64,000 bases of DNA from Protoeuglena noctilucae (Eukaryota). Position numbers and translations under genes: made by a program. Location: NCBI GenBank assembly GCA_958009085.1, contig OY253680.1:744001-808000 (forward strand). The letters run 5' to 3'. This document shows, in pieces, positions 25,177-62,177 of the stretch; the stretch's first letter is position 1; every line of letters begins with the position of its first letter. Under the pieces are notes generated by a model. The model had not been told where the DNA came from, ran no database searches, and saw only the letters and a list, made by a program, of their open reading frames with translations.

Positions 25177-28100
25177 TCATGTAGTCCCAGCTGAGCCAAC
25201 CCCGCTTTGACTGGCCGTGGGCTGACTTTGCGTGGGCAGCAACAGATCGTGGCCCTGCCAGCACTGGGCCGGCACAGTCGACCCAGCAACCGTGGCCTCC
25301 TTCCACCACTTCACGCACTTCTTCCCGGCACGGCAGCTGCATGGAAGCTGCTCAAATGCGTGGTCCTTGGTCTCGTATCCATCGCCACAGATGGCACACA
25401 CGTGGCCTGGGTCGCCGTCGCTCCATATGCCCAGGAACGCCTCATCCACCGCCGTGTCCCCTTCCCTTAATCTGGGTGAGTCACGAAGGGTGAGGACGCT
25501 CGCTCGGGGGCATCTCCGACAGCTATGCAACCAAGCTCACATCATTGCAAACAACCACGACCACCGCAGCCCCTTACCTCACACCCTGCACCCAGCCGCG
25601 CAGCTCCTCGGACAGCCCCTCGATTGTCGGGCGCTTGGACGGGTCTGGGTCGAGGCACTTGGTCAGGGCGGACCTGCGAAGGGGTGTGGGGAGAAAAGGT
25701 TAGCTCTGTAAGGGCCTCAGCAGAGGTGCAAAGGTCCACTGCGTCGGTGTACCTGATGGGCTCGGGAACGTCCTCCAGGTGCCTCTGTTCCAGGGCTCGG
25801 CCGTGAATGTGCTCCAAAGCAATCAGTCTCGAGTTGACGCCGGAGAACGGCCTCTTGCCTGACGCCAGGTGTGCCAGCGTGGCTGCCACCGCGTAGACGT
25901 CCCACGACTTCTCTGCACAGACAAGAGTTGACACACAAACGTTGCAGGGGTTATTCTTGCCTATCAAGGCCTCGCCAATGCAGTCAGTGCAACTGCTGGC
26001 CACGAAAGCGCTTCGTACCTGCAACCCCAGGATCCATGTTCTTCATTTGGTCCAAGGGCGCGTACAAATGAGTCATCTCTAATGCAGTTTTAGGCAATGT
26101 GCCCTCCTTAACGTGCTGTGTAGAGAAAGCGCTAATTGTATTAGTATGATCTCCTGAGGCTCGACTCCTGACATTGCTGCATGTGAGAGAGGACCCCACC
26201 TTCACGCTCCCAAAGTCGCAAAGCACCACGGTCCCGTCCCTTGTAATCAGACAGTTGGGTGGCTTGATATCGCAGTGCACCAGCCCCTGCTCGTGCATCT
26301 CCATCACCGCCTTGCAGATGTCGTCCGTCGCCTTTGCAAGTGCCACCTCCTTCAGCGGCCCCTCTCTTACCACCCGCTCCAGCGAACCCCAGCATCGGTC
26401 CATCACCATCCACAGCTTGTAAGTCTCAACACCAGCCACAGCCCCGTACGTGGGGCACACTCTCTTGCACCGCTCGGACACCACCATACTCACGAAGACC
26501 TCGTTTCTTGTATGCTCGTTGTCAATCATGACCTTGACTGCCACCGGCTTAAGGCCCTCGGCGTCCGTCATTGATGCCATCTTGACCAAATTGCGAGTTC
26601 TTCCAAGAACGCGCCCCGACCTTGACAACTTGCTGCGATCCAGGTTGAGAATCCTGGACGCAACCTCCTTCATGTCCAAATCTGTCAGCACTGCATCGCC
26701 AGCGTTGACCTTCCGCAATGTTTGCACCACGTTTGCAACCGTCTGGCCCCTGGTCGAGACGAGCGCAACGCTCGCTCCGTCATGCGCTTGACCCCTGCAT
26801 ACAATGGAATTGAGTTGGGGATGTGGTCACTGAGAGGGCCTACAACCATGGTCTAATGACACACCTCACATCCGTCTCACCCGTCATGCTCCTCGCCCAA
26901 CTCTGCTTCCTCCTTTGGCAGATTTTGCTTGAGCACTGCTTCAAGGGCCGCCCACCCAGGTGGCCCAGTCCTGTGGGAAACATCACAAAGGTTCATCGAG
27001 TGTAAATACCACTGCAGATGCAATGCGTCACGCTGTGCAATTCCCAAGTGGATGCCGCACCTGGTGGCCTCCTCCCACTGCACCGTCCCCTCTGCCATCT
27101 CCGCTGCTGTGGGACGCGCCGCCGCGTCTGGGTCCAGACACTGCCGCAGCAAGGGTCTGCGAAAGCAAGCTCGGAGGGCTCTGTTATTGATACACTGCTG
27201 CAATGCCTATGCTCCCTTCGCATGCTCTCAATGCCATGCATAACTGCACCTGATACCCTCGGGAACGAGGTCGAGGTACATGTGGTTCATGGCTTTGCCA
27301 TCGGTATGATGCACAGCAATCATAGCAGCTGGGACGGATTCAAAGGGCACCTTCCCTGACGCGAGGTGAGCGATGGTGGCAGCCGCAGCAGCCACATCCC
27401 ATTTGGGGTCTGCGGGTGCCACCACGGGGAAGCAGGGTGTTTTGCACAAGTAGCTTATGTCTTGCTTCCAGCAAGGGGCTGCCAGGGGGCACTGGGTAGG
27501 CTAGCTCACCCGCCTTCGTCCCCGCGGATGCTTTGAGTTGGTCAAGGGGCGCGTAGTTGTGCGTCATCGCCACCCTGTCGCCCAGCTCCTGATCGACAGA
27601 CTGCAATCACGGACGCTTTGGGCCATGGTCAGCCTCCACTGCGTCATTGCTTGCTGCAGTCCCACCTGACCCAGCGCAGTTCCTCACGTGAGCCGCGTCA
27701 AAGTCCGTCAATACCACCCTGCCGTCCCTCCGAACGAGGCAGTTGCCCGGCTTCACATCGCAGTGCACGATGCCGCACGCATGCAGCTGGGCCACCGCAT
27801 CAGAGATGTCGCATGAGGAGCATGCCAGCTCGCCCAAGGGAAGGCCCTTGCCGCCGAGACCGCGCAGGCGATCCGCCAATGACCCCCCGCACCGCTCCAT
27901 CACCATGAACAGCGCACGACTGCGCTTGACGCACCCGTAGAACTTGGGGACAAGCGCACACTGCAGTGAGGCCCGTAATGCCAGGCCCACCTCGCTCTCC
28001 GGATGGAACGAGCTGTCCATCGGCGACATCTCCTTGACCGCCACCGGCAAGGCATTGCCATCAACCGTCAGCGTGGCCGCACGCACAGAAGCCCGCCCGC

Positions 28101-28530
28101 TGTCAATGGCCTCTCCACGTTTCGACAGGGAATCGTTGGGCAGGAAGATCACGCTCCTCAGCCACTCCGTCGCCTCCCCGACAGATGCCACTGGCAGAGA
28201 CTCGACGAACTCGCCGACTCTCTCCAGTGGCAGCTCGTCCGCCGACACGGCGTGGCCCATCCAGCATTGCGGCCCGCCCTCGGTCCCCCTGGCCTGGAGC
28301 GTCCGGCTTAGCCACCGTCTCGCGCCTGCCTTGCAAGCGATGCAGCCGCACGGGAGCCGCCTGGGCTCGATATCGCCACCGTCCGCCTCGAATGCGTGCC
28401 CGCACAGGACACACCACGGCGTCCCCAGGGACCGATTCCAGCGACCGCTGTGCGACGCCAGCGGGCGAAACGCACTCGATGTGCCAGGATCGCCGTCGGG
28501 CGCGGCGAGTCCGCTCCCCTCCGCTGACAT
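25177..28530 (-). CDS. RING-kinase-kinase-RING tandem kinase protein (KEG-like modules)
   Basis: N-terminal RING-like CVLC...LPCGCIAC...CWMGH. Kinase 1 has VAVKE, HCDVKPGN and DFD. Linker exons splice in frame (EEATR|TGPPGW...EHDG|GQAHDG...VVQTLRK). Kinase 2 has VAVKV, MDRCWGS, HCDIKPPN and DFG. A second RING-like CAIC...LPCSC...CWQGH follows. Confidence 0.75.
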
Positions 28531-28971
28531 CTCGGTCACGGCATGCAGGCTGAAGCTCGCGACGACAGCCGGCTCATCATGCGGCTAGCTCAGGAAGAGG
28601 ATTGAACACGATTAGCATGCCTTTCGCACAATTGCCGCGAGCATCAGCCGGGCTTTACCCTTCCAGCAAAGTGTTTCACGAGCATGCGCACAATGCACTC
28701 TTCCTTTCCATCCTTTGCTGACATTATCCATCCGTCCTTGAATGACAGCCAGCGACGGCCAGGTTCCTTAGGGGCTTCTTTCCGTTAAGTGCGTCCAGTC
28801 GGCGATTGCTGCTGCAGGCAGCGTTTGACCGAGACCACTTACAGAGCCACGGCTTCACAGAGTAGGAGTCAGAGGTGACTGGATAGGGGTGCGATCGTAC
28901 CGTGGCAGCCTGCGTGGCAGTCGGGAGCCCGCACTCTTGACTGCTGATGTTGAGACTCCCTTTCGAAGGCC

Positions 28972-50682: not shown

Positions 50683-52214
50683 TCACGCGCTCGCCCACTC
50701 CTTGAGCATCGACTGCAGCCCTGCCAGGGACGGCCTGCTCGAGATCGGGCCCAGGCACTGCCGCAGGATCTCCCTGCGAGGACGCGAGCCTTGCACAGGT
50801 CAGCAGCTCTTGCGTTGCGCTGCGGGTGTCAGTCAGTATGGCCGCAGCGGCACAGCTCGTCACCGCAGCTTGTCGTCAGGGACCTGGTCCAGGTTCATGT
50901 GCTGCAGCGTGCGGCCCATGGCGTGCTCGACCGCGACCATCGCCGACGGGGTGTCGGCGAATGGCTTTTTCCCAGTCGCCAGCTCCGCGAGGGTCGCAGC
51001 GACCGAGTACACGTCCCACCGCGGGTCTGGGAGGGCGACAGTAGGGGAAGAGGACAGGATGAGGTGTGGCAGTTTGTACAAGCATTGTCCGCCACATCAT
51101 GGATGCCCACACTCAAGAGTCACCTGCCCTGCACCCCGGACCGGCCCGGGTAGACAGCTGCTCCAGGCAGCTGTAGGCCAGCGTGAAAGCCAGAGTTGAC
51201 ATCACAGTCTTCTCCAGCACCTGCGAGGAGCTCAAGGCCATGGATATTGATAACCACAGCGTTGCTGGAAGCGCACTCTTGGCCATCACCACGGAACAGT
51301 GGCCGGGGTCTACATGTCACACCACCTGGCGCTCCCAGCATTGCGCCGACGCCCACACTCGCCTTGCTGCTCCCGAAGTCGCACAGCACCACCGTGCCGT
51401 CCCCCCGCACCAGGCAGTTCTCGGGCTTGATGTCGCAGTGCACGATGCCGCAGGCGTGCAGCTGCGCCAGGCTTGTGCAGATGTCCAGCGCCACCTTGGC
51501 CAGCTGCCGCATCTCCATGCCTTTGCCCCCGTTGTTGTCCAGCCACCGCCCCAGGGATGTCTGGCACAGCTCCATCACCAGGTACACCATCCCCTGCTGC
51601 TCCATGTACCCGTACACACGGCACACCGCGGGGCACTCCTTAGAGGCCAGCATGGACCTCCCCACCTCGCGCACAACCCGATCGCGGTAAGATCCCGCCA
51701 TTGGCAGCTCCTTCACCGCCACGTCGACGGGCTGCTCGCCTGGCCTCTGCAGCTTCGCGCAGCGCACGACGGCTCTGCCCTCGGAGCCTCCGATGCATGG
51801 CCCGATGTCGGCTATCCAGCTGGGGTCGAGGCGGCCGACGAGATCCAGCTCCTCCGCCTGCCTCGCCGTGCGCTGTTCCGCGTCACCCGCCGGCAGCGTC
51901 TTGAGCTTGTCGACGTACGCCTCGACGCCGTCCGGGCGCAGCGCCCGCATCTCTACCGTCGGCTCGTGAAGGTAGCAGCAACGCGGCTGGAACGCCCCGC
52001 CGCTGCTTGAATTCGTCCCTTCCGTGCCGAGGTTGTTCAGCAGGCACTTCCGGCACAGCACGCACCCGCACGGCAGCTGCTTGGGCCTGTGCTCCCCACC
52101 ATCATAGATGCTTCCGCATGACGTACACTCCTGCAGCGCCTGCCCACCCGCCCCTGCGATCGGAGAACCGTGCTCTGCACTCAGGCCCCGTCCGGGCTTT
52201 CTGTCGCCGCGCAT
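50683..52214 (-). CDS. KEG-like RING-kinase paralog A (non-RD)
   Basis: RING-like CTSC...LPCGCVLCRKC...CCYLH. The kinase has VAVKE, CPAVCRVYG, HCDIKPEN, DFGSSK| (GC donor 51362) and WDVYSVAATL. It ends RPSLAGLQSMLKEWASA*. Confidence 0.85.
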
Positions 52215-52863
52215 GCAGCCAGCAGTAGATGAGGATCAAGTCTGAGATTGAAAGACGAGCTTTTGGGGCCTGCGCACGCCCAGGACCCTCCCGGCGCGCG
52301 GATCTAGCCATGGCCTGCAAGCAGCCATGCGAAGCGAACCACGCGCCGGTCCGTGGCCCGGGTGGTCATCGCTTGCCTGATCCGGGTGCCATTCCTCTTC
52401 CTCAATGCTCCGGTAGGTCCAGCGAGGCTGAGGGCTCCCGGGACTGGCCCCTGCCCAGCAAGGCAGGTGCAGCCTCTGCGATGCGAACGACCCTGGCCCC
52501 GATGCCTCGCGCAGATGCACACTAGGCAAGACGATATGTCCACATCACGCACGGGCCGCACAGCTGTCAGGGCGTCCTTGCGATGGTCTGGCACCGCAGC
52601 GCGAGTCAGAAGAAAGCCAGTTCTCGCCCTGTGGTTCGCCAAACACACTTTGCTGCGATGTCAACGCATCGGACGCTAGCGACGCTGACAGGCAGCCCGG
52701 GATCGCGATCGCGGGCATTGCAGGGGAGCACCTGTTGTGACAGGTCAGGTCGCCTGTTCAGATGGACGGGTGCATGACGATGATTGTGTGGTCGAGAGCT
52801 GCGGGGGCCTCCCGTGCTCGAGATGCTGAGGGACCTATTCAAAATGCAGTTGTGGCAAACAGT

Positions 52864-52940: not shown

Positions 52941-54353
52941 TCACAGCGCTCCCATGCTCGATGCCCACTGCCTGACCTCCTCCAGCAGCTCCACCGCGGA
53001 CGGCGTCTGCTGCTGCGGCGTCTGCTGCGTGTCCTGCGCCAGGCACCGCAGCAGCACAGGCCTGCAAGCACTGGCAGCAGACATGAAGATGAGCAAAAGC
53101 AACCCAAGAGCTGCGTGCCTGGAACGTGACGCTTTGTAGAGACCCTCACCTGAGGCCGTCCGGGACCACGTCCAGGTGCATGTGCTCCAGCGTGCGGCCC
53201 CCGATGTGCTCCGTGGCGACCAGCGCTGGAGCCACCTTGTCGAAGGGCTGCCTCCCACTGGCCAGGTGCGTCATGGTTGCAGCCCACGAGTGGATGTCCC
53301 AAGCTTTCACTGCAAGCAGTGAAGAGGGGCCGGGCACTGTTGCACATCCGTGGCAGCTATCGCCGCCCCTCGCGGTCCCAGCGGGGTGCGGACTCACCGG
53401 CTCGGGTACGCCGGGCCTCCACGACCTTCAGCTGGCTGAGGCACGCGTAGGACGCCGTCGCGTACCATGTCGACCGCACGGAGTGATTCACGGACTGCGG
53501 CCAGTGTGCACGGATGTGTGAGGGTCTCTCCAAGGCACAGCCTCTGCGGCCCTGCTGCATGCGCAGTCAAAGCACTCGCCTTGCTGCCCCCGAAGTCCGC
53601 CAGGACCACGGTGCCGTCCGCCCGGACCAGGCAGTTGCCCGGCTTGATGTCGCAATGCACCACATCGCAGGCATGCAGCTGCGCCAGGCTGGTGCACAGG
53701 TCGACTGCGACCCGGGCCAGCTCCCCCTGAGGCAGCCCTCGTCCGCCCAGCTCTGCCAAGCGATCAGCCAATGACCGCTGGCAGCGCTCCATGACCATCA
53801 GGAGGGCGTCGTTCTGCTGAGTGTACCCATAGACGCGGCACACCCGAGAGCACCGCTGGCTGACCAGCGAAGCCATCGACACCTCGCGCCGCTCGCGTCG
53901 CCAGTCCTCTGATGTGCGCCTGTGGATGACCTTGACGGCGACCGGCACCTGTGCTCCGTTCACCAGGAGCGTCGCCTCGAAGATTGCCCCCGCACCTCCG
54001 TTTCCAATGCACTGCCCCAGTTCAGACAGCGCCCCCGAGGGCAGCTCCCCCAGGAACTGCACCTGCTCCTGGTGGGCGGCGTTGGGTGCTCCGGTCGGGA
54101 GCGTGTCGACAAAGGCGCCCACACCTTCCGAGCCGCGGCCTGCCAGGTCCGGCAGGGCCCCGTGGCACAGCATACACCTGGGGTCCTGCGCACTCTCCGA
54201 CAGGCTTATGCTGAGCAGCGTCGTGGCGCACGGCCGGCACGCGATGCATCCGCACGGCTGGCGCACGGTGGCGAAGGCGCCATCTTCTTCGAGCAGGCAC
54301 CCGCATACAGGGCACAGGGCCTCCTCCTCGGCCATGTTCACGGTCGCCGACAT
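52941..54353 (-). CDS. KEG-like RING-kinase paralog B (non-RD)
   Basis: CPVC...QPCGCIACRPC...CMLCH, IGNGGAGAI, VAVKV, HCDIKPGN, DFGGSK| (GC donor 53579) and WDIHSWAATM. It ends VRQWASSMGAL*. Confidence 0.85.
53617..53804 (-). repeat. Left arm of ~188-bp near-identical inverted repeat (inside kinase B)
   Basis: Its reverse complement matches 55463-55650 with ~10 mismatches by hand alignment, including a 74-bp exact core. Confidence 0.9.
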
Positions 54354-54889
54354 CTGATGCCTTGATTGAGCCTTCGATCACGTCGATCGCGCCCTGGTCG
54401 GCTCACTGCAGCCGGCGACGGACGATGTTGTGCTCTGAGTGGCCCGCGAGGTCGTCTCCGGGAGAAAAGCTAGCTCTCTTTGCGCGCGTGTCGCAGACAA
54501 CAGCGAGAAAAGGGGCAGTGTGGCCTCAGCGGCACAACTCGCCAGCGCAAAGCTGCACGCGGGTTGCCAGTGCTTCGGTTTGCCTGTTTGCCGTGTGCCG
54601 CTTGCACACGCCATCTGAGGAGCGCACGATGTGGCGTTGGCACCGATATATTTCTGCCGCGTGTCATCTTCTGCCCCAGATTCCCAGCGGAGCGCAAGCA
54701 GCGTCCTGCATGTTCTCGCAAACGCGCTTCCGATTGCGTTAAAAACGGCTTAGCTTCCCTCGGATTGTTGCTCAACGATTGTCAGCTTCGTCACTGGACT
54801 GCACGGGGTGGTGATCGATCGCTTTTGCAACGCGAAAGCACGGATCCAGCGCAATTTCATGCTTGTCCATTTCTCGCGATTGCAGGGCC

Positions 54890-56335
54890 ATGGCAGCGGC
54901 TGGGCAGGGCGCCGGAATGTACGGCGCTTTTTGCTACGTCTGCCTCTGGGAGTACACATGGCTCGTGCAGGAGCACGCGCCCGTGCAGCTGTCGTGCGGC
55001 TGCGTGGCATGCCGGCGCTGCGTGTGCTGGTGGCTCCGCGGGCAGGTCGGATGCCCGCAGCCCGAGTGCTGGAACGGCCACCCGATCGTGGGGATGGTCG
55101 CCACGACCGAGGCGGACGCCCTGACTGACACGCTGGCGATGCTCCCCGAGACAGGGCCGGCGGCGCCCGAGCAGCCGACCCACGCGGCCCCGCCGAGCGA
55201 GGCAGCGTTTTCCGCGGGCCGCCTGCCTCTGGAATTCCTGACAGTCACGGGAGAGTGTCTAGGCGTGGGCGGCGCAGGAACAGTGTATGGGGGCTTGCTG
55301 CAGCTCCTGGAGGGCACGAAGCTCCCGGTGGCGGTGAAGACAGACACGGCCCCCGAGCACGGTGGACGTCGCATGCGCCGCGAGATCGTCATTGCCATGC
55401 ATATCTCTCAGGCTTGCCCGCTGACGTGCCGGGTGTACGGCTACGTGGAGCAGGGCGACCAGCTCCTGATGGTCATGGAGCGCTGCCAGCGGTCATTGGC
55501 CGGTCGCTTGGCAGAGCTGGGTGGACGAGGGCTGCCTCAGGGGGAGCTGGCCCGGGTCGCAGTCGACCTGTGCACCAGCCTGGCGCAGCTGCATGCGTGT
55601 GGCGTGGTGCACTCCGACATCAAGCCGGGCAACTGCCTAGTCCGGGCGGATGAGCGCGGCACAGTCGTCCTGGCCGACTTCGGGGCGTGCAAGGCGAGAG
55701 GGGAGAGCGGACGGCGCGTGGCTCTGGCTGTGCATGCGTGCACCATGTGCGGCCGCGAGACAGAGATGCCCCAGTGCGTCTGCGCAGCGGAGCGACCGCA
55801 CGGCGTGGTCGACCATCTTCGCGACGCACTGCTACGCCTCGTACGAGCACTTGTCGGCCCAGCGCGGGCGGAGGCCAGGTGCGCACACAGCTCTGGACCC
55901 AGCAGCCCCCTGGGCTTTCAAGCTCATGCCAGGGGCAGCACACCACCTGGCCGTGGCGTCGTTCGCCGAGGCGGTCCTCTCCTTGTCCCACGCAGCGCTG
56001 GCCTGGGACATCTTCTCCATTGCAGCGACCCTGTGCCACCTGGCGACCGGCGTGCGGCCGTTCAGGGACGTGGCCCCCGCCACCATCACGGTGGAGCACG
56101 TGCAGGGCCGCGTGCTCGAGCACATGCGCCTGGGTGATGTCGCGGACCCGGCGCTCAGGTGCGTGGGGGACCCTGGCCGGCTGGAGGCGGGGCGGTCGCC
56201 CGTCCTTGGCAGGGGAGCAAGCGTTGCCGCCCTCGCAGGGCCATCCTCGCCCGGTCCCTCTCGTCGCATCCCGCGCAGCGCCCCACGGCGGACGAGCTGC
56301 TCCGCGACGTGGAGCAATGGGCCGCAAGCGAGTGA
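54890..56335 (+). CDS. KEG-like RING-kinase paralog C (non-RD), head-to-head with paralog B
   Basis: CYVC...LSCGCVACRRC...CWNGH, LGVGGAGTVY, VAVKT, HSDIKPGN, DFGACK| (GC donor 55694) and WDIFSIAATL. It ends RPTADELLRDVEQWAASE*. Confidence 0.85.
55463..55650 (+). repeat. Right arm of ~188-bp near-identical inverted repeat (inside kinase C)
   Basis: Matches the reverse complement of 53617-53804; the exact core is 55523-55596. Confidence 0.9.
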
Positions 56336-56544
56336 GGGGGGACGCTCCCGTCGCCTGAGGACATGCGCATGCATGCCGCGCGATCGCCGGCGGCTCCCAT
56401 GACCCACGACCCTTCGCCCGGGACAGGAGAGGCCGTGAAGTCCGGCGGCAGGCCCACCCTGGCATCTGAAAGACGACTGTGCAGTGGCGTTTTGCTGGCC
56501 TCTGGCAGGGGGGTCGGCTTGCATTCAAGTGGAAGGCAACCTGC

Positions 56545-56559
56545 AGAACGTTCTGGAAA
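56545..56559 (+). promoter_or_regulatory. Perfect heat-shock element (nGAAnnTTCnnGAAn)
   Basis: aGAAcgTTCtgGAAa lies ~107 bp upstream of the predicted ATG (56666) of the recombinase-bHLH gene. Confidence 0.5.
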
Positions 56560-56665
56560 CTGAATTTACGAAGGCAGATCTGTCTTTCGGGCGTTTCACC
56601 CGCCGACATAGGAGCTGTCGTGCAGTATCCTCCTGCAACCTGCGCCCTCTCCGATCCCCAGCAAG

Positions 56666-59598
56666 ATGGTCATTGAGACCATCTTAAGCGTGTTTTTAGG
56701 GGTTCATGCGATTCACGGGGACGGGGATGGCGGCTCGGGGACGGAGGACCCGCGCGCGCCGGGGCCTTCCTCGTCCGCTAGCCGGCAACAGCTCCGACGG
56801 CCACGAGAGCGGTCACGATCGGGCGAACGGGTTGAAGATGACTGCAACAAACGGTTCCGGTGGACTTCGGAGGCGTCCGTGTTCGACGTGGGCGATGTGG
56901 GCGATGTGGGTGAGGTCGACAGTTGGGCACCGGTGACGCCGTATCTGCACGCCCCGCACCTCGCGCCGCCAAGTGGGCCCTTTAACACCCGCAGAAATTG
57001 TTAATGACTCCCGCGATATCAACCAAGAGCCTCTCTGTGGGCCTGTCGAACTCGTTGACCTTGTGAGTCGCTGCTTGTTGTGTTGGACAGGCTCGGAAAG
57101 GGACGTATGGGGCGTCATAGATGGAGTGTTTGCTGCCCTGAGTAAGGAAAGGGTACAGGGAGGACGCAGGGAGGACGATGCTGTTGGCGCATGGGGTGAA
57201 AGCGGGGGCGGGGTCCAATGTACTCCCATTTACGCAAGGGTAATGCAGGTAGATAGTGACCTAAATTACAACTTCGTTCTTCTGGGCCGTAATATGCCGT
57301 CCCTGAATCACGCAGGATGACGAATTCCAAGATGAAGACCCGGATGATGAGGCTGGTGGCGGTCGCCGGACCACCATGGAGACGAGCGCCGGGTGCATCA
57401 TTGGTATGGCGCCACTTCTGCAGGAGTCGGTGGTGAGTGAAAGCTGGCACTGCAGGTGAACTGTCACGGCGTCAGCCCACTTGCCCCGCCCACTTGCCCC
57501 GGGCGCCCACCCCATGCCCGCCAAGCACCCTCCCCATGCTGTTTCTGCGCGAGGCCTGCACTGACGGTACACTGAGTAGTGAGGAACAGCGAGTAGGACG
57601 AAACAGCCGCCCCCTTCACAAATGTTCGCAGAAGGGGCAAACCAACTGTCAGAATTTTCTGTTTCCGGCCGCGAAAACCATGTTCGAAACCATCGGCCAG
57701 TCTAAACCAGACGACCCGGAGCACTTCCGACAGCTGCTCATGTCGGTGCGGCGGGCCAGGCCGAAGCCTGGCTTCGTGGACTTTGACACATTGTCCCGCA
57801 TCGTCAGGAGTGCCTCTTCCCCAATGGAGGCAAGGGCTTTGTTGATGGTGCACATGCTGCTTCCTGTGCGCATGGGGGAACTGTGGAATGCGCTGTTTTT
57901 CGTGGATGTCGTCAAATCCCGCAAGAAGGTGAACTATTTTCACCGCATGGGCTGTGAGGGACTGGGGGAGTTCGTTTTCTGGGTGTACAAGACCCGTGGC
58001 ATTGGCGTGCAGAAGTTGCCTGTCCCTGAAGAGCTCCGGCTCGTGTTGCTGAGCCTCCGCATGGATGATGAGGAAGACGGGGAGTTTGTGTTTGGCTCCT
58101 TCGAGACCCGTACCGCCTTCAACGCGCATGTCAAGGATGTGCTTGGTGCCCTAAACCCCGCCGTTCGCTACAACGTCCTTAGGCATGCAGTGGTCACCAA
58201 GCTCGCAACGCTGTGCACGACGTTTGCTGAGTTTGCACGCATTGCGGCATACATGTTGCACTTACCCTATTCCGCATGGTACTATTACTGTCATGTGGAT
58301 ATCGCGGCTCGGGTGGTCGGGGCACACGCGGGGGTCACGTTCTTGGGTGGGATTGGTAGGGGGCTAGGGGAGGGGGGCATTGGGGCTCAGCTGTCAAGGG
58401 AACTTGGGGTGCTGGGGAGCGGCGTGGAGTGGCTTGAGGAGCTGAGGTTATCGGTGGCCGTTGTGCAGGAGCCAGTGGAGGGAGGGGCGTGGCTGGGCAG
58501 CAGCGTTGCTGACTTGGCACTAGAGATGGAGGCGGGACCGGGCAGCGCACTGGAGGTGGGGACAGCACCAGGCGGCATGGCTGACTTGGCACTAGAGATG
58601 GAGGCGGGACCGGGCAGCGCACTGGAGGTGGGGACAGCACCAGGCGGCATGGCTGACCTGGCACTAGAGATGGAGGCCGGACTGGGCAGCGCAACGGAGG
58701 TGGGGGCAGCACCAGGCGGCCTGGCTGACCTGGCACTGGATGTAGAAGGAGGGCCAGTTGGCGTGGCAAAGGTTAGGGCAGGTGTGCGAGGGGTGCATGG
58801 TGTAAGCCGTCACGATGGGGGACCTAAGGATGGGAACCAAGGGGCCCCTCATACAAAGGCATTAAAAGAGAGGTATCGGAGGGACTGCATCAACAAGCGG
58901 TGCTCTGAGCTGGCTCAGGTGAGGGCTGCGCGATGGCTTGGTGCCACCCATTTGCACGTACAACACAGCACCTCTGAGGCGCCCACCCCAGCCATTTCGC
59001 AGTTGATCTATGCCGGCGAGAAGCCCAAGACGGACAAGCTTTCAATTCTGAGGGACACTGTCAGGGTGGTGAAGCAGATGCGCGTGGCATGTGGGGGAGG
59101 GCCTGTTGGTGTGGCGCAAGTAGGGGCGGGTGGGGGAGGGCCTGTCGGTGTGGCGCAAGTAGAGGCGGGTGGGGGAGGGCCTGTCGGTGTGGTGCAGGGG
59201 CCAGGCGAGGCGCAGCTTGGGGATGGTGGGGAGGGGGCAAGCGGCGATGACGGGGAACAGGACGGGAAGCGGGAGGCTGCTCATAAGAAGGCACTGAGAG
59301 AGAAGCATCGGAGGTGCCGCATCAACGAGCGGTTTTCTGAGCTGGCTCAGGTGAGGGCTGCATCACAAGGGTGTCCCCCGGCAGGTAGAGCCCTTGTGAT
59401 GCTTGCACCAGCGGCCAATGCCACCCATGTAGGAACTCTCATGCTTGCAAAGACTCTGAGGCGCCCACCCCAGCCATTTCGCAGTTGATCTATGCCGACG
59501 AGGAGCACAGCACGGACAAGCTTTCCATTTTGGTGGACACCATTAAGCTGATCAAGCACAGGCACACGTTCTTGAGCCGGATGGTGGCCCGGCCATAG
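56666..59598 (+). CDS. Tyrosine recombinase - repeat - bHLH - repeat - bHLH fusion protein (~780 aa, spliced)
   Basis: Exons 56666-56909, 56995-57239, 57316-57432, 57632-58918, 59003-59350 and 59485-59598 join in frame through GT-AG introns. YR motifs: LPVRMGEL, GEFVFWVYKT, NVLRHAVVT, AAYMLHLPYSAWYYY. bHLH1: KALKERYRRDCINKRCSELAQ|LIYAGEKPKTDKLSILRDTVRVVKQMR. bHLH2: KALREKHRRCRINERFSELAQ|LIYADEEHSTDKLSILVDTIKLIK. Confidence 0.8.
57760..58300 (+). mobile_element. Tyrosine-recombinase catalytic domain, probably derived from a mobile element or virus
   Basis: Catalytic set: R (57869), K (57989), N-x-x-R (R 58181), H (58259) and Y at +9 (58286). The domain is intronless and visibly lower in GC than neighbouring housekeeping exons. 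No element ends were identified. Confidence 0.65.
58508..58745 (+). repeat. 72-bp coding tandem repeat x~3.3 (ADLALEMEAGPGSALEVGTAPGGM)
   Basis: Units start at 58508, 58580, 58652 and 58724; the first two are identical. Confidence 0.95.
59091..59197 (+). repeat. 39-bp coding tandem repeat x~3 (GGGPVGVAQVGAG)
   Basis: Units start at 59091, 59130 and 59169; a diverged copy lies at ~58748, before bHLH1. Confidence 0.9.
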
Positions 59599-59988
59599 CA
59601 AGGTAAGGACGCGTGGGGTTGGGAAGGCGCAGTTCGGGAGGCCCTGCCCGCACTCAAGCGCGGCGAGGTTGCTCCAGGTGACCAGCCTGGGGTCGAGCAC
59701 GCGCCATTTCGACAGTTTTGCGATGACATGGCCCCGGGAGGTCCCCTGGGCCGTTGGAGCGGCCTCGACGACGCGATGCGATCCCCGGATCGCAATGGCC
59801 GCCCCCGCCCCAGCCGGGCCTCGGGGCGCCACGTCCTGGCCTCGAGTCTTTGCGACGCTCCCAGCGCATCCACGCGGAGGCTCTCGGGGTCGTGAGACGC
59901 CGCACTGACGCTCAACCGATCGCCTACCCACCCTGCCGCGTCCTGTGTGCCCGTGCCCCCGCAGGCCCTCGTCGGCGAGGCTTGAGGA

Positions 59989-61451
59989 ATGGACCGCCGC
60001 CGGAGTGCCGAGCTGTCCTCGCGGCCCTCGGGCCTGCAGCGGCTCGTACAGAGCATCCGCCATGACGCCGGAGGCCGGGCCGCCGGGGCGCTGCGCTGCC
60101 ACATCTTCGACGGCACGCACCCCGAGCTAACGGAGGCGCTCCGCAGCCGCGGGGAGGGCGCGTGGCGGCTGGCCGCGGCGCTCGTCCTGTCGCTGGCCTT
60201 CATGGTTGCCGAAATGGTGGCGGCGTACTTTAGCAACTCCCTGGCCCTCTGGAGCGACTCGGTGCACATGATGTCGGACGTCACGGGCTTCGCCATCTCG
60301 CTCTTCGCCCAGCGCTTCGCGCAGCGGCGCCCGTCCGCCACGCACAGCTTTGGCTACCTGCGCGCCGAAGTGCTCGGGGCCCTGGCGTCCGTGATGATGA
60401 TTTGGGCCGTGACGGGCGTCCTCGTGTGGGAGGCGGTCGGGCGCTTCATGCACCCGGAGGCGAGGGGCTTTGCAGAGCGCGGCCGGTCGTTGGATGCCTT
60501 TGCTCGTCCCTGCCCAACCTCCTCCCCGCTTCTCTTCTCCGCAGAAAGTGGGCGGGCGCACCATGGTGATCGTCGGATGCCTGGGCCTCCTGAGCAACGT
60601 GACCATCGCGCTCGTGATGGGAAACCGCGAGCACGGACCGGGTTCATCCCCCCGGCCGTCCAGCGGGGGCGAGCGCAAGGCCGCGGGCGACCCCGACGTC
60701 GAGGCGGACGGCGTGCCGCTGATGGAATCTCGCTTGGAGGGGTCCACGGCCGGGCGGCGCGCCACGGAGGCGCCTGTAGAGGCCGGCCCTGGCGAGGCGG
60801 GGCAGGGCAAGTCGGTGAACGAGCGGGCGGCCTTCATCCACGCGATCGGCGACGCGGTGCAGAACGTGGGCGTCGTGCTCGCCGGCGTCCTCATCTGGCT
60901 CAAGCCGGGCCCCGCCAAGTACGCCCACCTGTGGCTCCTCGCCGACCCCCTCTGCACCTTCCTCTTCTCCATCCTGGTCCTCATGACGACCTCGGGCATC
61001 CTCCGCGAGCTCAGCGACGTCCTCATGGAGCGCGCGCCCAGGCGAGTGCGAGTGGAGGGCGCGCCTGGTGGCCGGGCCGCATGCCACACCAGGCAGCCGC
61101 GGTATGTCGTCTCGCCTCTATCGTCAGCGCTAAACAGCCATGACCTCTCGTCCCGTATCTCTCCCACACCACCCGCGTCGCGTCATCTGCAGGGACCAGG
61201 AGGCCCTCCTCGTCGTGGACAGCCTGATGGCCGTGCCCGGCGTGGCGGCGGTGCACGACGTCCACCTGTGGCAACTGGCGCCCGGCATCCCCCTCTTCTC
61301 CTGCCACGTCGTCATGGTGCCCGGGGCCAACGGCATCGAGGTGCTGGCGGCGTGCGAGGCGGCGCTGCACAAGCAGGGCCTCAGGCACACGACGGTGCAG
61401 GTCGAGGAGGAGGCGAAGGAGGGGCATGTGTGCGGGTGCAGCCACGCCTGA
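59989..61451 (+). CDS. MTP1: Cation diffusion facilitator Zn transporter (MTP1/ZnT2-like)
   Basis: SNSLALWSDSVHMMSDV (TM2 HxxxD), HSFGYLRAEVLGAL, RAAFIHAIGDAVQN (TM5 HxxxD), ADPLCTFLFS, VLMERAP, VHDVHLWQL and HTTVQVE. It has two GC-AG introns. Confidence 0.92.
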
Positions 61452-62177
61452 CCTGACGGGACGGGAACCCGCTTCCTTGTTGCATCGACCCTTTTTGGTA
61501 GAAATGCGCGACCCATTTGGCCCCACTAAGTCCGCCATTTTCGAGCAGGCGTTCCCTTTACCCAGCAACACCCCCGCCTGTCATGTGTCGAGCCAGACTC
61601 CTCAGCAACACGAGTCTGGGCTCAACGGCCGTCGTTCTTGCAAGCAGCAGGCACTAGCTGTCGAAGGACGAGGCCACGTTCCCCAGCCAAAACACCAACT
61701 GTTCTCAAGCTGAGCCGCCGGCCTGCCTTGGTCCATGCGAGCACATTCAACAGCGTGGCTACGGCCCCACTCGGCCTCGGAGGCTAGGGTTCGGCTCTAT
61801 GTTAGCTTTAGGTCCTACGAAACGAAGTCGGGTTACGGCAAGGGAGAGAAGCGGCAAGCGCCACTCACGGCTTGCTAGGTTGGTTCGGCAGTCTCGCAGG
61901 GGCACCCGTGCGGGAGTCGCCCCGTGTTGCTCACGCAGACTGTATGGAGTGACGGGTGGAGTACGGTGCGTGGATGAGGAAAGGGCGGGTGCCGTGGTTT
62001 CGATGCTCTCGTCCGACGACACAAGACAGGACCGCAACGTCGGACTCCGCAAGGTAGGGGGCAACACTTAGAGTCTTGGCGAGATTGCGATGGTAAGCGG
62101 TAGAAGCATGCGAGCGAACGATGAGCTCGTGCGCCACATGCGCAGGGGAACCTTTCTTGCAGCGTCGGGCGTGCCTG

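Follow-up and report, generated by a model that had tools for sequence, protein, structure and literature searches.

The gene described here lies at positions 56666 to 59598, on the forward strand, of a 64,000-nucleotide window of Protoeuglena noctilucae DNA (contig OY253680.1, positions 744,001 to 808,000); all coordinates below are those of this window. It is spliced and expressed, and its predicted product joins a tyrosine recombinase (YR)-like domain, by way of low-complexity linkers, to two tandem basic helix-loop-helix (bHLH) domains.

Gene structure and expression

Expression was followed in RNA contigs of the metatranscriptome runs X9 and X10, which belong to the same sample and study, and of a third run, X11, with DNA run X5, from the same sample as X9 and X10, serving as the control. 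When the region 56400-59900 was compared with the contigs of these four runs, five GT..AG joints were found in the RNA contigs and none of them in X5. The gene model built on these joints is as follows (nt, nucleotides):

56487..56665, + strand: 5′ untranslated region (at least), within the RNA contig X9 record 20
56666..56909, + strand: exon 1, start codon and acidic low-complexity N-terminus; RNA joint 56909/56995; no Pfam family
56910-56994, + strand: intron 1, 85 nt, RNA joint
56995..57062, + strand: exon 2, RNA joints at both ends (X9, X10)
57063-57315, + strand: intron 2, 253 nt, RNA joints in X9 and X10
57316..57432, + strand: exon 3, acidic stretch; RNA joints at both ends (X9, X10)
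57433-57631, + strand: intron 3, 199 nt, RNA joint in X9 and X10
57632..58918, + strand: exon 4 (the large exon), YR-like domain, G-rich linker, 24-residue repeats, basic region and helix 1 of bHLH 1
58919-59002, + strand: intron 4, 84 nt, phase 0, stop-free, in the loop of bHLH 1; joint in X9, X10 and X11
59003..59350, + strand: exon 5, helix 2 of bHLH 1, 39-nt repeat, acidic/Gly linker, basic region and helix 1 of bHLH 2
59351-59484, + strand: intron 5, 134 nt; joint in one X9 contig only
59485..59598, + strand: exon 6, coding part, helix 2 of bHLH 2; stop codon TAG at 59596-98; RNA contigs of X9, X10 and X11

For introns 1-4, each joint is supported by two or three runs, and all five introns have a GTGAG donor and a CGCAG acceptor. 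Joining the six exons (56666-59598) by script gave 2178 nt, an uninterrupted frame of 725 codons followed by its stop; exon 6 itself extends to 59602. The 5′ half is represented by X9 record 20 (1309 nt), which equals 56487-58332 minus introns 1-3. The first ATG of this transcript is the one at 56666, and an in-frame stop lies upstream at 56609-11, without an earlier ATG from 56487 onwards. The guanine-plus-cytosine (GC) content by codon position follows a coding pattern, with a low second position, in all exons, and is flat in the introns (for example 0.65/0.64/0.61). The sequence-only reading had proposed a spliced nuclear gene whose exons all join through canonical introns without stops, and both proposals are borne out by the RNA joints and the open 725-codon frame.

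What weighs against the complete six-exon model is the exon 5-exon 6 joint, which rests on one odd contig of one run. This contig (X9 record 23, 201 nt), the sole one with that joint, has 30 loose letters before 59299 that match the end of exon 6 and the start of the exon of a downstream cation-efflux gene, so that the order of the pieces looks circular, as could result from a chimeric assembly, a template switch or a circular RNA.

Of the 230 stop-to-stop frames in the window with at least 130 codons, the longest (57437-59485, 683 codons) also falls in this gene, and it exists because of the length, phase and lack of stops of intron 4 given above. Retention of this intron would add 28 residues to the loop of bHLH 1 with the frame kept, and prokaryote-style open reading frame (ORF) calls in the databases do read through it.

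The bHLH domains and their linkage to the upstream half

The downstream half of the gene contains two bHLH domains separated and preceded by low-complexity sequence, and its parts are arranged as follows:

58311..58507, + strand: G-rich linker, 51% G, in frame, with G-quadruplex-type motifs at 58345-58385
58508..58737, + strand: 72-nt tandem repeat (24 residues, 3.2 copies), in frame, from Tandem Repeats Finder
58850..58918, + strand: basic region and helix 1 of bHLH 1, Pfam HLH profile positions 4-24
59003-59083, + strand: helix 2 of bHLH 1, in exon 5
59091-59196, + strand: 39-nt tandem repeat (2.7 copies), in frame, in exon 5, from Tandem Repeats Finder
59282-59350, + strand: basic region and helix 1 of bHLH 2, in exon 5

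Pfam HLH (PF00010) has a cut-off of 20.7 bits, and both copies reach it. When read through the in-frame intron, bHLH 1 (58760-59095) scored 26.7 bits over positions 4-52 of the 53 in the profile, the basic region and helix 1 of bHLH 2 (59201-59350) scored 21.1 bits, and exon 5 as a whole (59003-59350) scored 30 bits, in two stretches. Exon 6 alone, too short by itself, matched no Pfam family; its helix 2 of bHLH 2 is 60% identical to helix 2 of bHLH 1 (E 7.6e-7, tblastn within the window). A phmmer search of the PDB sequences with the bHLH pieces gave no match at E ≤ 1. The translation further shows that the DNA-contacting Glu and Arg-Arg residues are kept in both copies (K-E-R-Y-R-R in copy 1, R-E-K-H-R-R in copy 2), so that the earlier claim of two bHLH domains with these contacts preserved stands, as does that of in-frame low-complexity repeats, found here as the 72-nt and 39-nt arrays.

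At the DNA level the two bHLH units are direct repeats (D4/D5) of 81-84% identity, intron included, with a spacing of 432 versus 482, and intron 5 is the copy of intron 4, enlarged by a 50-nt insertion. The bHLH pair therefore arose by a tandem duplication that took the intron along. Both domains presumably resemble those of plant bHLH subgroup IV (ILR3/bHLH105, PYE), and may belong to its subgroup IVc, as the sequence-only reading had it, the likeness lying in the K-A-x-R-E-K-x-R-R-x-x-[LI]-N basic region, the P-K-T-D-K before helix 2 and the intron after helix 1. Unlike subgroup IV, neither copy here is followed by a leucine zipper or heptads, and two copies are present within one chain.

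Four database ORF calls (646, 659, 670 and 683 residues) are identical except for two or three units of the 24- and 13-residue repeats, occurring in all four combinations. This variation in repeat number reflects either a strain length polymorphism or an assembly collapse.

The open, coding-like frame makes it very probable that the YR-like and bHLH halves belong to one polypeptide. Exon 4 is a single open frame, with RNA contigs over 57631-58332 and 58508-58915, and its codon periodicity is unbroken from the YR-like part through the linker (0.75/0.52/0.76 by codon position in 58311-58507) and the repeats (0.85/0.56/0.62) to bHLH 1. No RNA contig of X9 or X10 crosses 58333-58507, a segment that DNA run X5 does cover. 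If two genes had been misread as one, with a YR-like gene ending at about 58330 and a double-bHLH gene starting in the repeats, then no RNA contig would be seen joining both halves, as is indeed the case, and the in-frame ATG codons within the repeats could serve as starts. We consider this very unlikely, since there is not one in-frame stop from 57632 to 58918, the coding periodicity persists through 58311-58760, and the RNA contigs, which end at 58332 and 58320, carry no poly(A) or other loose ends there. In addition, four independent database ORF calls keep the frame, with repeats gained or lost in whole codons (24 or 13 residues). Because the linker is so rich in G and carries quadruplex-type motifs, we think it likely that the segment dropped out while the libraries were prepared or assembled, and the RNA gap is neutral on the question of a single mRNA.

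The only sense-strand G-quadruplex-type motifs in 56400-59900 are those of the linker and one at 59123-59140, and both coincide with poor or zero RNA contig cover. A candidate in-frame intron at 58334-58468 was dropped, being without a supporting RNA joint.

The recombinase-like domain

The large exon carries the YR-like domain, whose residues are numbered here from the M at 57680:

57755..58300, + strand: YR-like catalytic-type domain, from hhalign, a custom hidden Markov model (HMM) and the ESM Atlas
57869-71, + strand: R64 in PVRMGEL, candidate Arg I
57989-91, + strand: K104 in YKT, candidate catalytic Lys
58172-74, + strand: N165 in NVLRH, Asn in place of His II
58181-83, + strand: R168 in NVLRH (N165-x-x-R168-H169, 58172-86), candidate Arg
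58259-61, + strand: H194 in MLH, candidate His
58286-88, + strand: Y203, candidate Tyr, nine residues after H194, in a Y-C-H context

All the residues named in the sequence-only reading, that is R, K, N-x-x-R-H, H and a Tyr at +9, are present in this exon. Five of the six canonical YR positions (R64, K104, R168, H194 and Y203) are filled on aligned columns, and the sixth, His II, is Asn165.

An exhaustive phmmer search over 1.84 billion representatives returned only the gene's own cluster, which consists of four prokaryote-style ORF calls, and one relative, P0002 (E 7e-6, 35% identity). The homologous-protein search with the domain gave nothing, and with A1, the two-sequence alignment of the domain and P0002, it gave P0002 only; two scans of metagenome contigs and one of viral contigs gave no relatives.

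The evidence for YR ancestry comes mainly from comparison with a profile of 15 YR sequences, made of the 13 PF00589 matches of E. coli K-12 (XerC, XerD, FimB, FimE and prophage integrases), lambda Int and Cre. Aligned to this profile by hhalign, the trimmed A1 scored 23.8 (P 0.004, HH-suite probability 8%) over 160 colinear columns, which is nearly the whole domain, and R64, K104, R168, H194 and Y203 were placed on catalytic columns, H169 on the column that corresponds to it and EFVFG on that of the conserved Phe. This score was reached by none of 400 column shuffles (mean 11.7, standard deviation 2.0, maximum 22.3 over 32 columns), and the reversed alignment scored 10.9. The window's sequence alone gave P 0.003 against the same profile. 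A custom HMM search (hmmsearch --max, 15-YR profile) gave 6.5 bits, a value reached by 2 of 2000 residue shuffles, with box I aligned and R64 on Arg I. In the ESM Atlas the feature neighbours at 0.96-0.97 were integrase, site-specific recombinase, protelomerase and archaeal integrase clusters, on a scale where shuffled proteins reach 0.95 about once in 100.

Phmmer against the PDB sequences gave four chance-level rows, with RNA polymerase beta' (E 0.099) and a response regulator (E 0.27) on top; in the row for XerA (5hxy, E 1.2, not significant) P-V-R-M-G-E-L was aligned to G-V-R-V-G-E-L of XerA, which we take to be the site of the catalytic Arg I. A profile of A1 had no match among the PDB sequences. 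Hmmalign as a test of colinearity was discarded, its alignment being local.

We judge the YR profile signal, as far as sequence comparison goes, to be real but modest and dependent on a broad profile, and descent of the domain from a YR catalytic domain to be quite likely. Several results weigh against such descent. P0002 alone gave P 0.31 in hhalign, and against the lambda-Int family no significant match was obtained by hhalign (P 0.098 with the untrimmed A1, a 17-column chance match, and 0.44 with the trimmed one). With MAFFT --add, six of seven conserved columns matched, but 9 of 400 shuffles did equally well or better. No family was found on the YR-like part with Pfam and NCBIfam at E up to 10 or with PHROGs at E up to 1, and none with Pfam at E up to 10 on 57437-58330 or on P0002. 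The AlphaFold2 models of 57680-58330 had a predicted local distance difference test (pLDDT) value of 41 from the single sequence and 35 from A1, neither usable for the fold, and Foldseek with the pLDDT-41 model found nothing in the PDB at E ≤ 0.001.

These null results in the curated libraries, the unrelated proteins at the top of the PDB sequence matches, the MAFFT shuffles that match at least six of the seven columns, the hhalign probability of only 8% and the lack of a usable structure model would all suit a domain unrelated to YRs, namely a lineage-specific alpha/beta domain whose abundance of R, K, H and Y would have produced the R..K..R-H..H..Y pattern by coincidence. Such a coincidence is unlikely, because the hhalign match is colinear over 160 columns, compared with at most 32 in the eight best-scoring of the 400 shuffles, and because phmmer to XerA, the custom HMM, hhalign and the language-model features agree on both the family and the register. 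Moreover, the 35%-identical P0002 independently draws YR neighbours, and YR or type IB topoisomerase chains make up 8 of the 47 listed Foldseek rows, all non-significant. As to the YR fold foreseen by the sequence-only reading, hhalign is colinear with the catalytic columns, and neither a Pfam family nor a Foldseek match at E ≤ 0.001 was obtained.

P0002 itself keeps the Lys, Arg II, His and Tyr, but its Arg I position is taken by Leu and that of His II by Asp, and because of these two changes it is unlikely to be catalytic. Conservation between the domain and P0002 is concentrated in the YR boxes, and the active-site region is therefore under some constraint, which could be explained by DNA-phosphate binding without chemistry as well as by catalysis. 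The ESM Atlas feature neighbours of P0002 (0.87, a lead only) are PF00589 clusters. Its Atlas model (pLDDT 0.50) has structural neighbours at TM 0.32-0.38, all sub-threshold, with PF00589 clusters in seven of ten rows and two Preplasmiviricota clusters among them (TM 0.36-0.37).

Behind its YR-like part, at about residues 210-255, P0002 has an Arg/Lys-rich stretch followed by a heptad-like Leu pattern, in which Pfam at E up to 10 recognises no family. A basic DNA-binding region of another type may lie here, and part of an intron may have been read as protein in the ORF call.

Host setting, proposed function and known counterparts

The window has a GC content of 0.59-0.72 in 2-kb steps, as GC-rich eukaryotic nuclear DNA. 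Pfam scans of its 29 open frames of at least 300 codons matched only cellular families (HSP70, four paralogous protein kinases, a beta-helix protein, an anoctamin, COG2, a cation-efflux (CDF) transporter and Staygreen) and no viral or transposon genes; the presence of Staygreen hints at a host of the green lineage. Rfam and tRNA scans of the window gave nothing. Between 0.93 and 0.98 of the sampled words of the window occur in one-organism runs and marine metagenomes, and 0.37-0.58 in the metatranscriptomes of one such sample.

The gene is also tied to its downstream neighbour by splicing:

59603..59964, + strand: a further GT..AG intron, from exon 6 to the first coding exon of the cation-efflux gene (ATG 59989); X9, X10 and X11

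The loose ends of the X9, X10 and X11 contigs behind 59603 equal the window from about 59965, and Pfam Cation_efflux matches 59986-61453. This splice starts four bases past the bHLH stop codon, and in one X10 contig of 1090 nt the part beyond the joint amounts to 968 nt. Contig depth is 56-118 at exon 6 and the transporter versus 4-24 upstream, and contig depth cannot rank the parts of the gene. Exon 6 is either shared with the transporter transcript or read through into it, by way of a bicistronic mRNA or of a second promoter in intron 5.

We favour a resident host gene, single copy in the window, because tblastn found one copy in the 64 kb, no convincing terminal repeats surround it (only short imperfect inverted repeats), its neighbours are cellular, it has five introns, its last exon is spliced onto a host gene, and the viral and metagenome contig scans gave no relatives. 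Nor were repeated candidate recombination sites found around the gene. The same features speak against a copy or remnant of a mobile element or integrated virus (Crypton-like, Polinton-like virus (PLV) or virophage) that captured bHLH exons, the more so as the introns are spliceosomal and all of the same GTGAG..CGCAG pattern and no viral or transposon genes occur among the scanned frames. For such an origin it can be said that eukaryotic YRs are mostly found in mobile elements or viruses, that GC at third codon positions (GC3) is 0.57-0.76 in this gene versus 0.92 in the adjoining cation-efflux gene, and that two Preplasmiviricota clusters stand among the sub-threshold structural neighbours of P0002, the only lead, and a weak one, to the PLV or virophage origin suggested in the sequence-only reading. 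However, with a GC3 of 0.71 the upstream kinase gene comes close to this gene, and altogether we regard a mobile-element or viral copy as most improbable.

Our preferred reading of this resident gene, to which we give a probability of about 0.5, is a single-copy host gene in which a YR-type module would have been exapted in a double-bHLH transcription regulator and most likely does not recombine DNA. The protein of about 725 residues would consist of an acidic disordered N-terminus, a divergent YR-derived domain, variable repeat linkers and the two tandem bHLH domains, and would act as a sequence-specific transcription regulator. Its bHLH domains would bind E-box or G-box-type DNA as dimers, formed with each other as an intramolecular pseudo-dimer or with a partner, and the YR-derived module would provide an extra DNA- or protein-contacting surface, in parallel to the Crypton-derived DUF3504.

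The distance from Arg I to Lys is 40 residues in the domain; in reference YRs it is about 14 residues shorter. No N-terminal core-binding (SAM-like) domain is recognisable, with no Pfam family on exon 1 or on 57437-58330, and the 143 residues encoded by exons 1-3 are acidic, of low complexity and dominated by D, E, G and S. Some true YRs also lack the N-terminal core-binding domain. Because His II is Asn, the Arg I-Lys distance is long, a core-binding domain is not recognisable and P0002 is without Arg I, catalysis has probably been lost, given YR descent. The description of the recombinase as apparently intact therefore holds for the five residues on catalytic columns, with their order and spacing right, and fails at His II, at the missing core-binding domain and at the relative that lost Arg I.

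A point against this loss of catalysis is that R, K, R and H with the Tyr at the canonical +9 in a Y-x-H context would fit an active enzyme equally well. In such an enzyme, be it a recombinase, nickase or resolvase, the bHLH pair would provide site recognition in place of the core-binding domain. The five residues lie on catalytic columns with a His-Tyr spacing of 9 and Y-x-H as in Xer-type enzymes, and the blocks common to the domain and P0002 are the YR boxes. Type IB topoisomerases and telomere resolvases tolerate other residues at His II, and the short YRs FimB and FimE, with frames of 218-221 codons in E. coli K-12, are almost without an N-terminal domain. Activity nevertheless seems rather unlikely to us, in view of the Asn at His II, the only relative lacking Arg I, the absence of repeated candidate recombination sites or terminal repeats around the gene and a YR assignment that is itself sub-threshold. 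In addition, known eukaryotic host-gene derivatives of YRs are without most catalytic residues, as described in PMC3212892. Somewhat more doubtful still is the fuller version, a catalytically competent host YR or nickase of virus or transposon descent that would choose its sites through the bHLH domains at E-box or G-box sequences, with P0002 as an inactivated sister. If true, such a bHLH-guided enzyme could rearrange DNA in a programmed way, nick strands or alter the topology at regulated promoters.

For the preferred, non-recombining regulator there are known counterparts. Crypton-derived DUF3504 occurs in the animal regulators KCTD1, KIAA1958, ZMYM2-4, QRICH1 and WOC, and the study of these genes describes DUF3504 as being without most of the catalytic tetrad and proposes the YR-derived module as a binding surface in regulators (Kojima & Jurka 2011, PMC3212892). 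The likeness is that of a YR-derived domain in a host gene beside other DNA-binding domains; in contrast to DUF3504, which has mostly lost the tetrad (PMC3212892), R, K, R, H and Y are kept here, the partner is a duplicated bHLH rather than a zinc finger or BTB domain, and the host is an alga. The DUF3504 model did not match the YR-like part (Pfam at E up to 10).

The Xer-type and phage YRs (XerC/XerD, XerA, lambda Int, Cre and FimB/FimE) show box I, the beta-hairpin Lys, L-R-H-A..T and H-x8-Y-x-H in the same succession and at matching distances. The domain differs from them in falling below every curated threshold, in having Asn for His II and no visible SAM-like core-binding domain, and in belonging to a nuclear gene with introns and C-terminal bHLH domains. 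A further parallel is the ALOG domain of plant regulators, which reportedly derives from the N-terminal domain of DIRS1-type YRs (Iyer & Aravind 2012, PMC3537659). It would share with the present gene the exaptation of a part of a mobile-element YR into a green-lineage transcription regulator, but here the catalytic-type domain would have been retained instead. A YR-like phage repressor has also been reported (bioRxiv 10.1101/2022.10.21.513154).

The sequence-only reading knew of no described YR-bHLH fusion, and full-text literature searches showed none. Exapted YR parts in regulators are already known, and the present gene would be categorically new only if the enzyme were active. It would add an independent example, from a marine alga, of a YR-derived domain in a host regulator, with a new architecture in which a YR catalytic-type domain is followed by a tandem double bHLH and still has the nucleophile Tyr as well as four out of the five remaining active-site residues. 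This raises the question whether a recombinase active site is guided by a transcription-factor domain or whether the fold survives only as a binding module. If active, the protein would be nature's equivalent of the recombinases that have been engineered by fusion to DNA-binding domains; if inactive, it would date and document another route from a mobile-element enzyme to a regulator.

The four paralogous protein-kinase genes of the window all lie upstream of the YR-bHLH gene, at 27610-28584, 51123-52235, 53397-54377 and 54815-56134. Three of them stand just before it, in direct and inverted orientation (repeat family D1; inverted pairs I1-I3, 80-83%).

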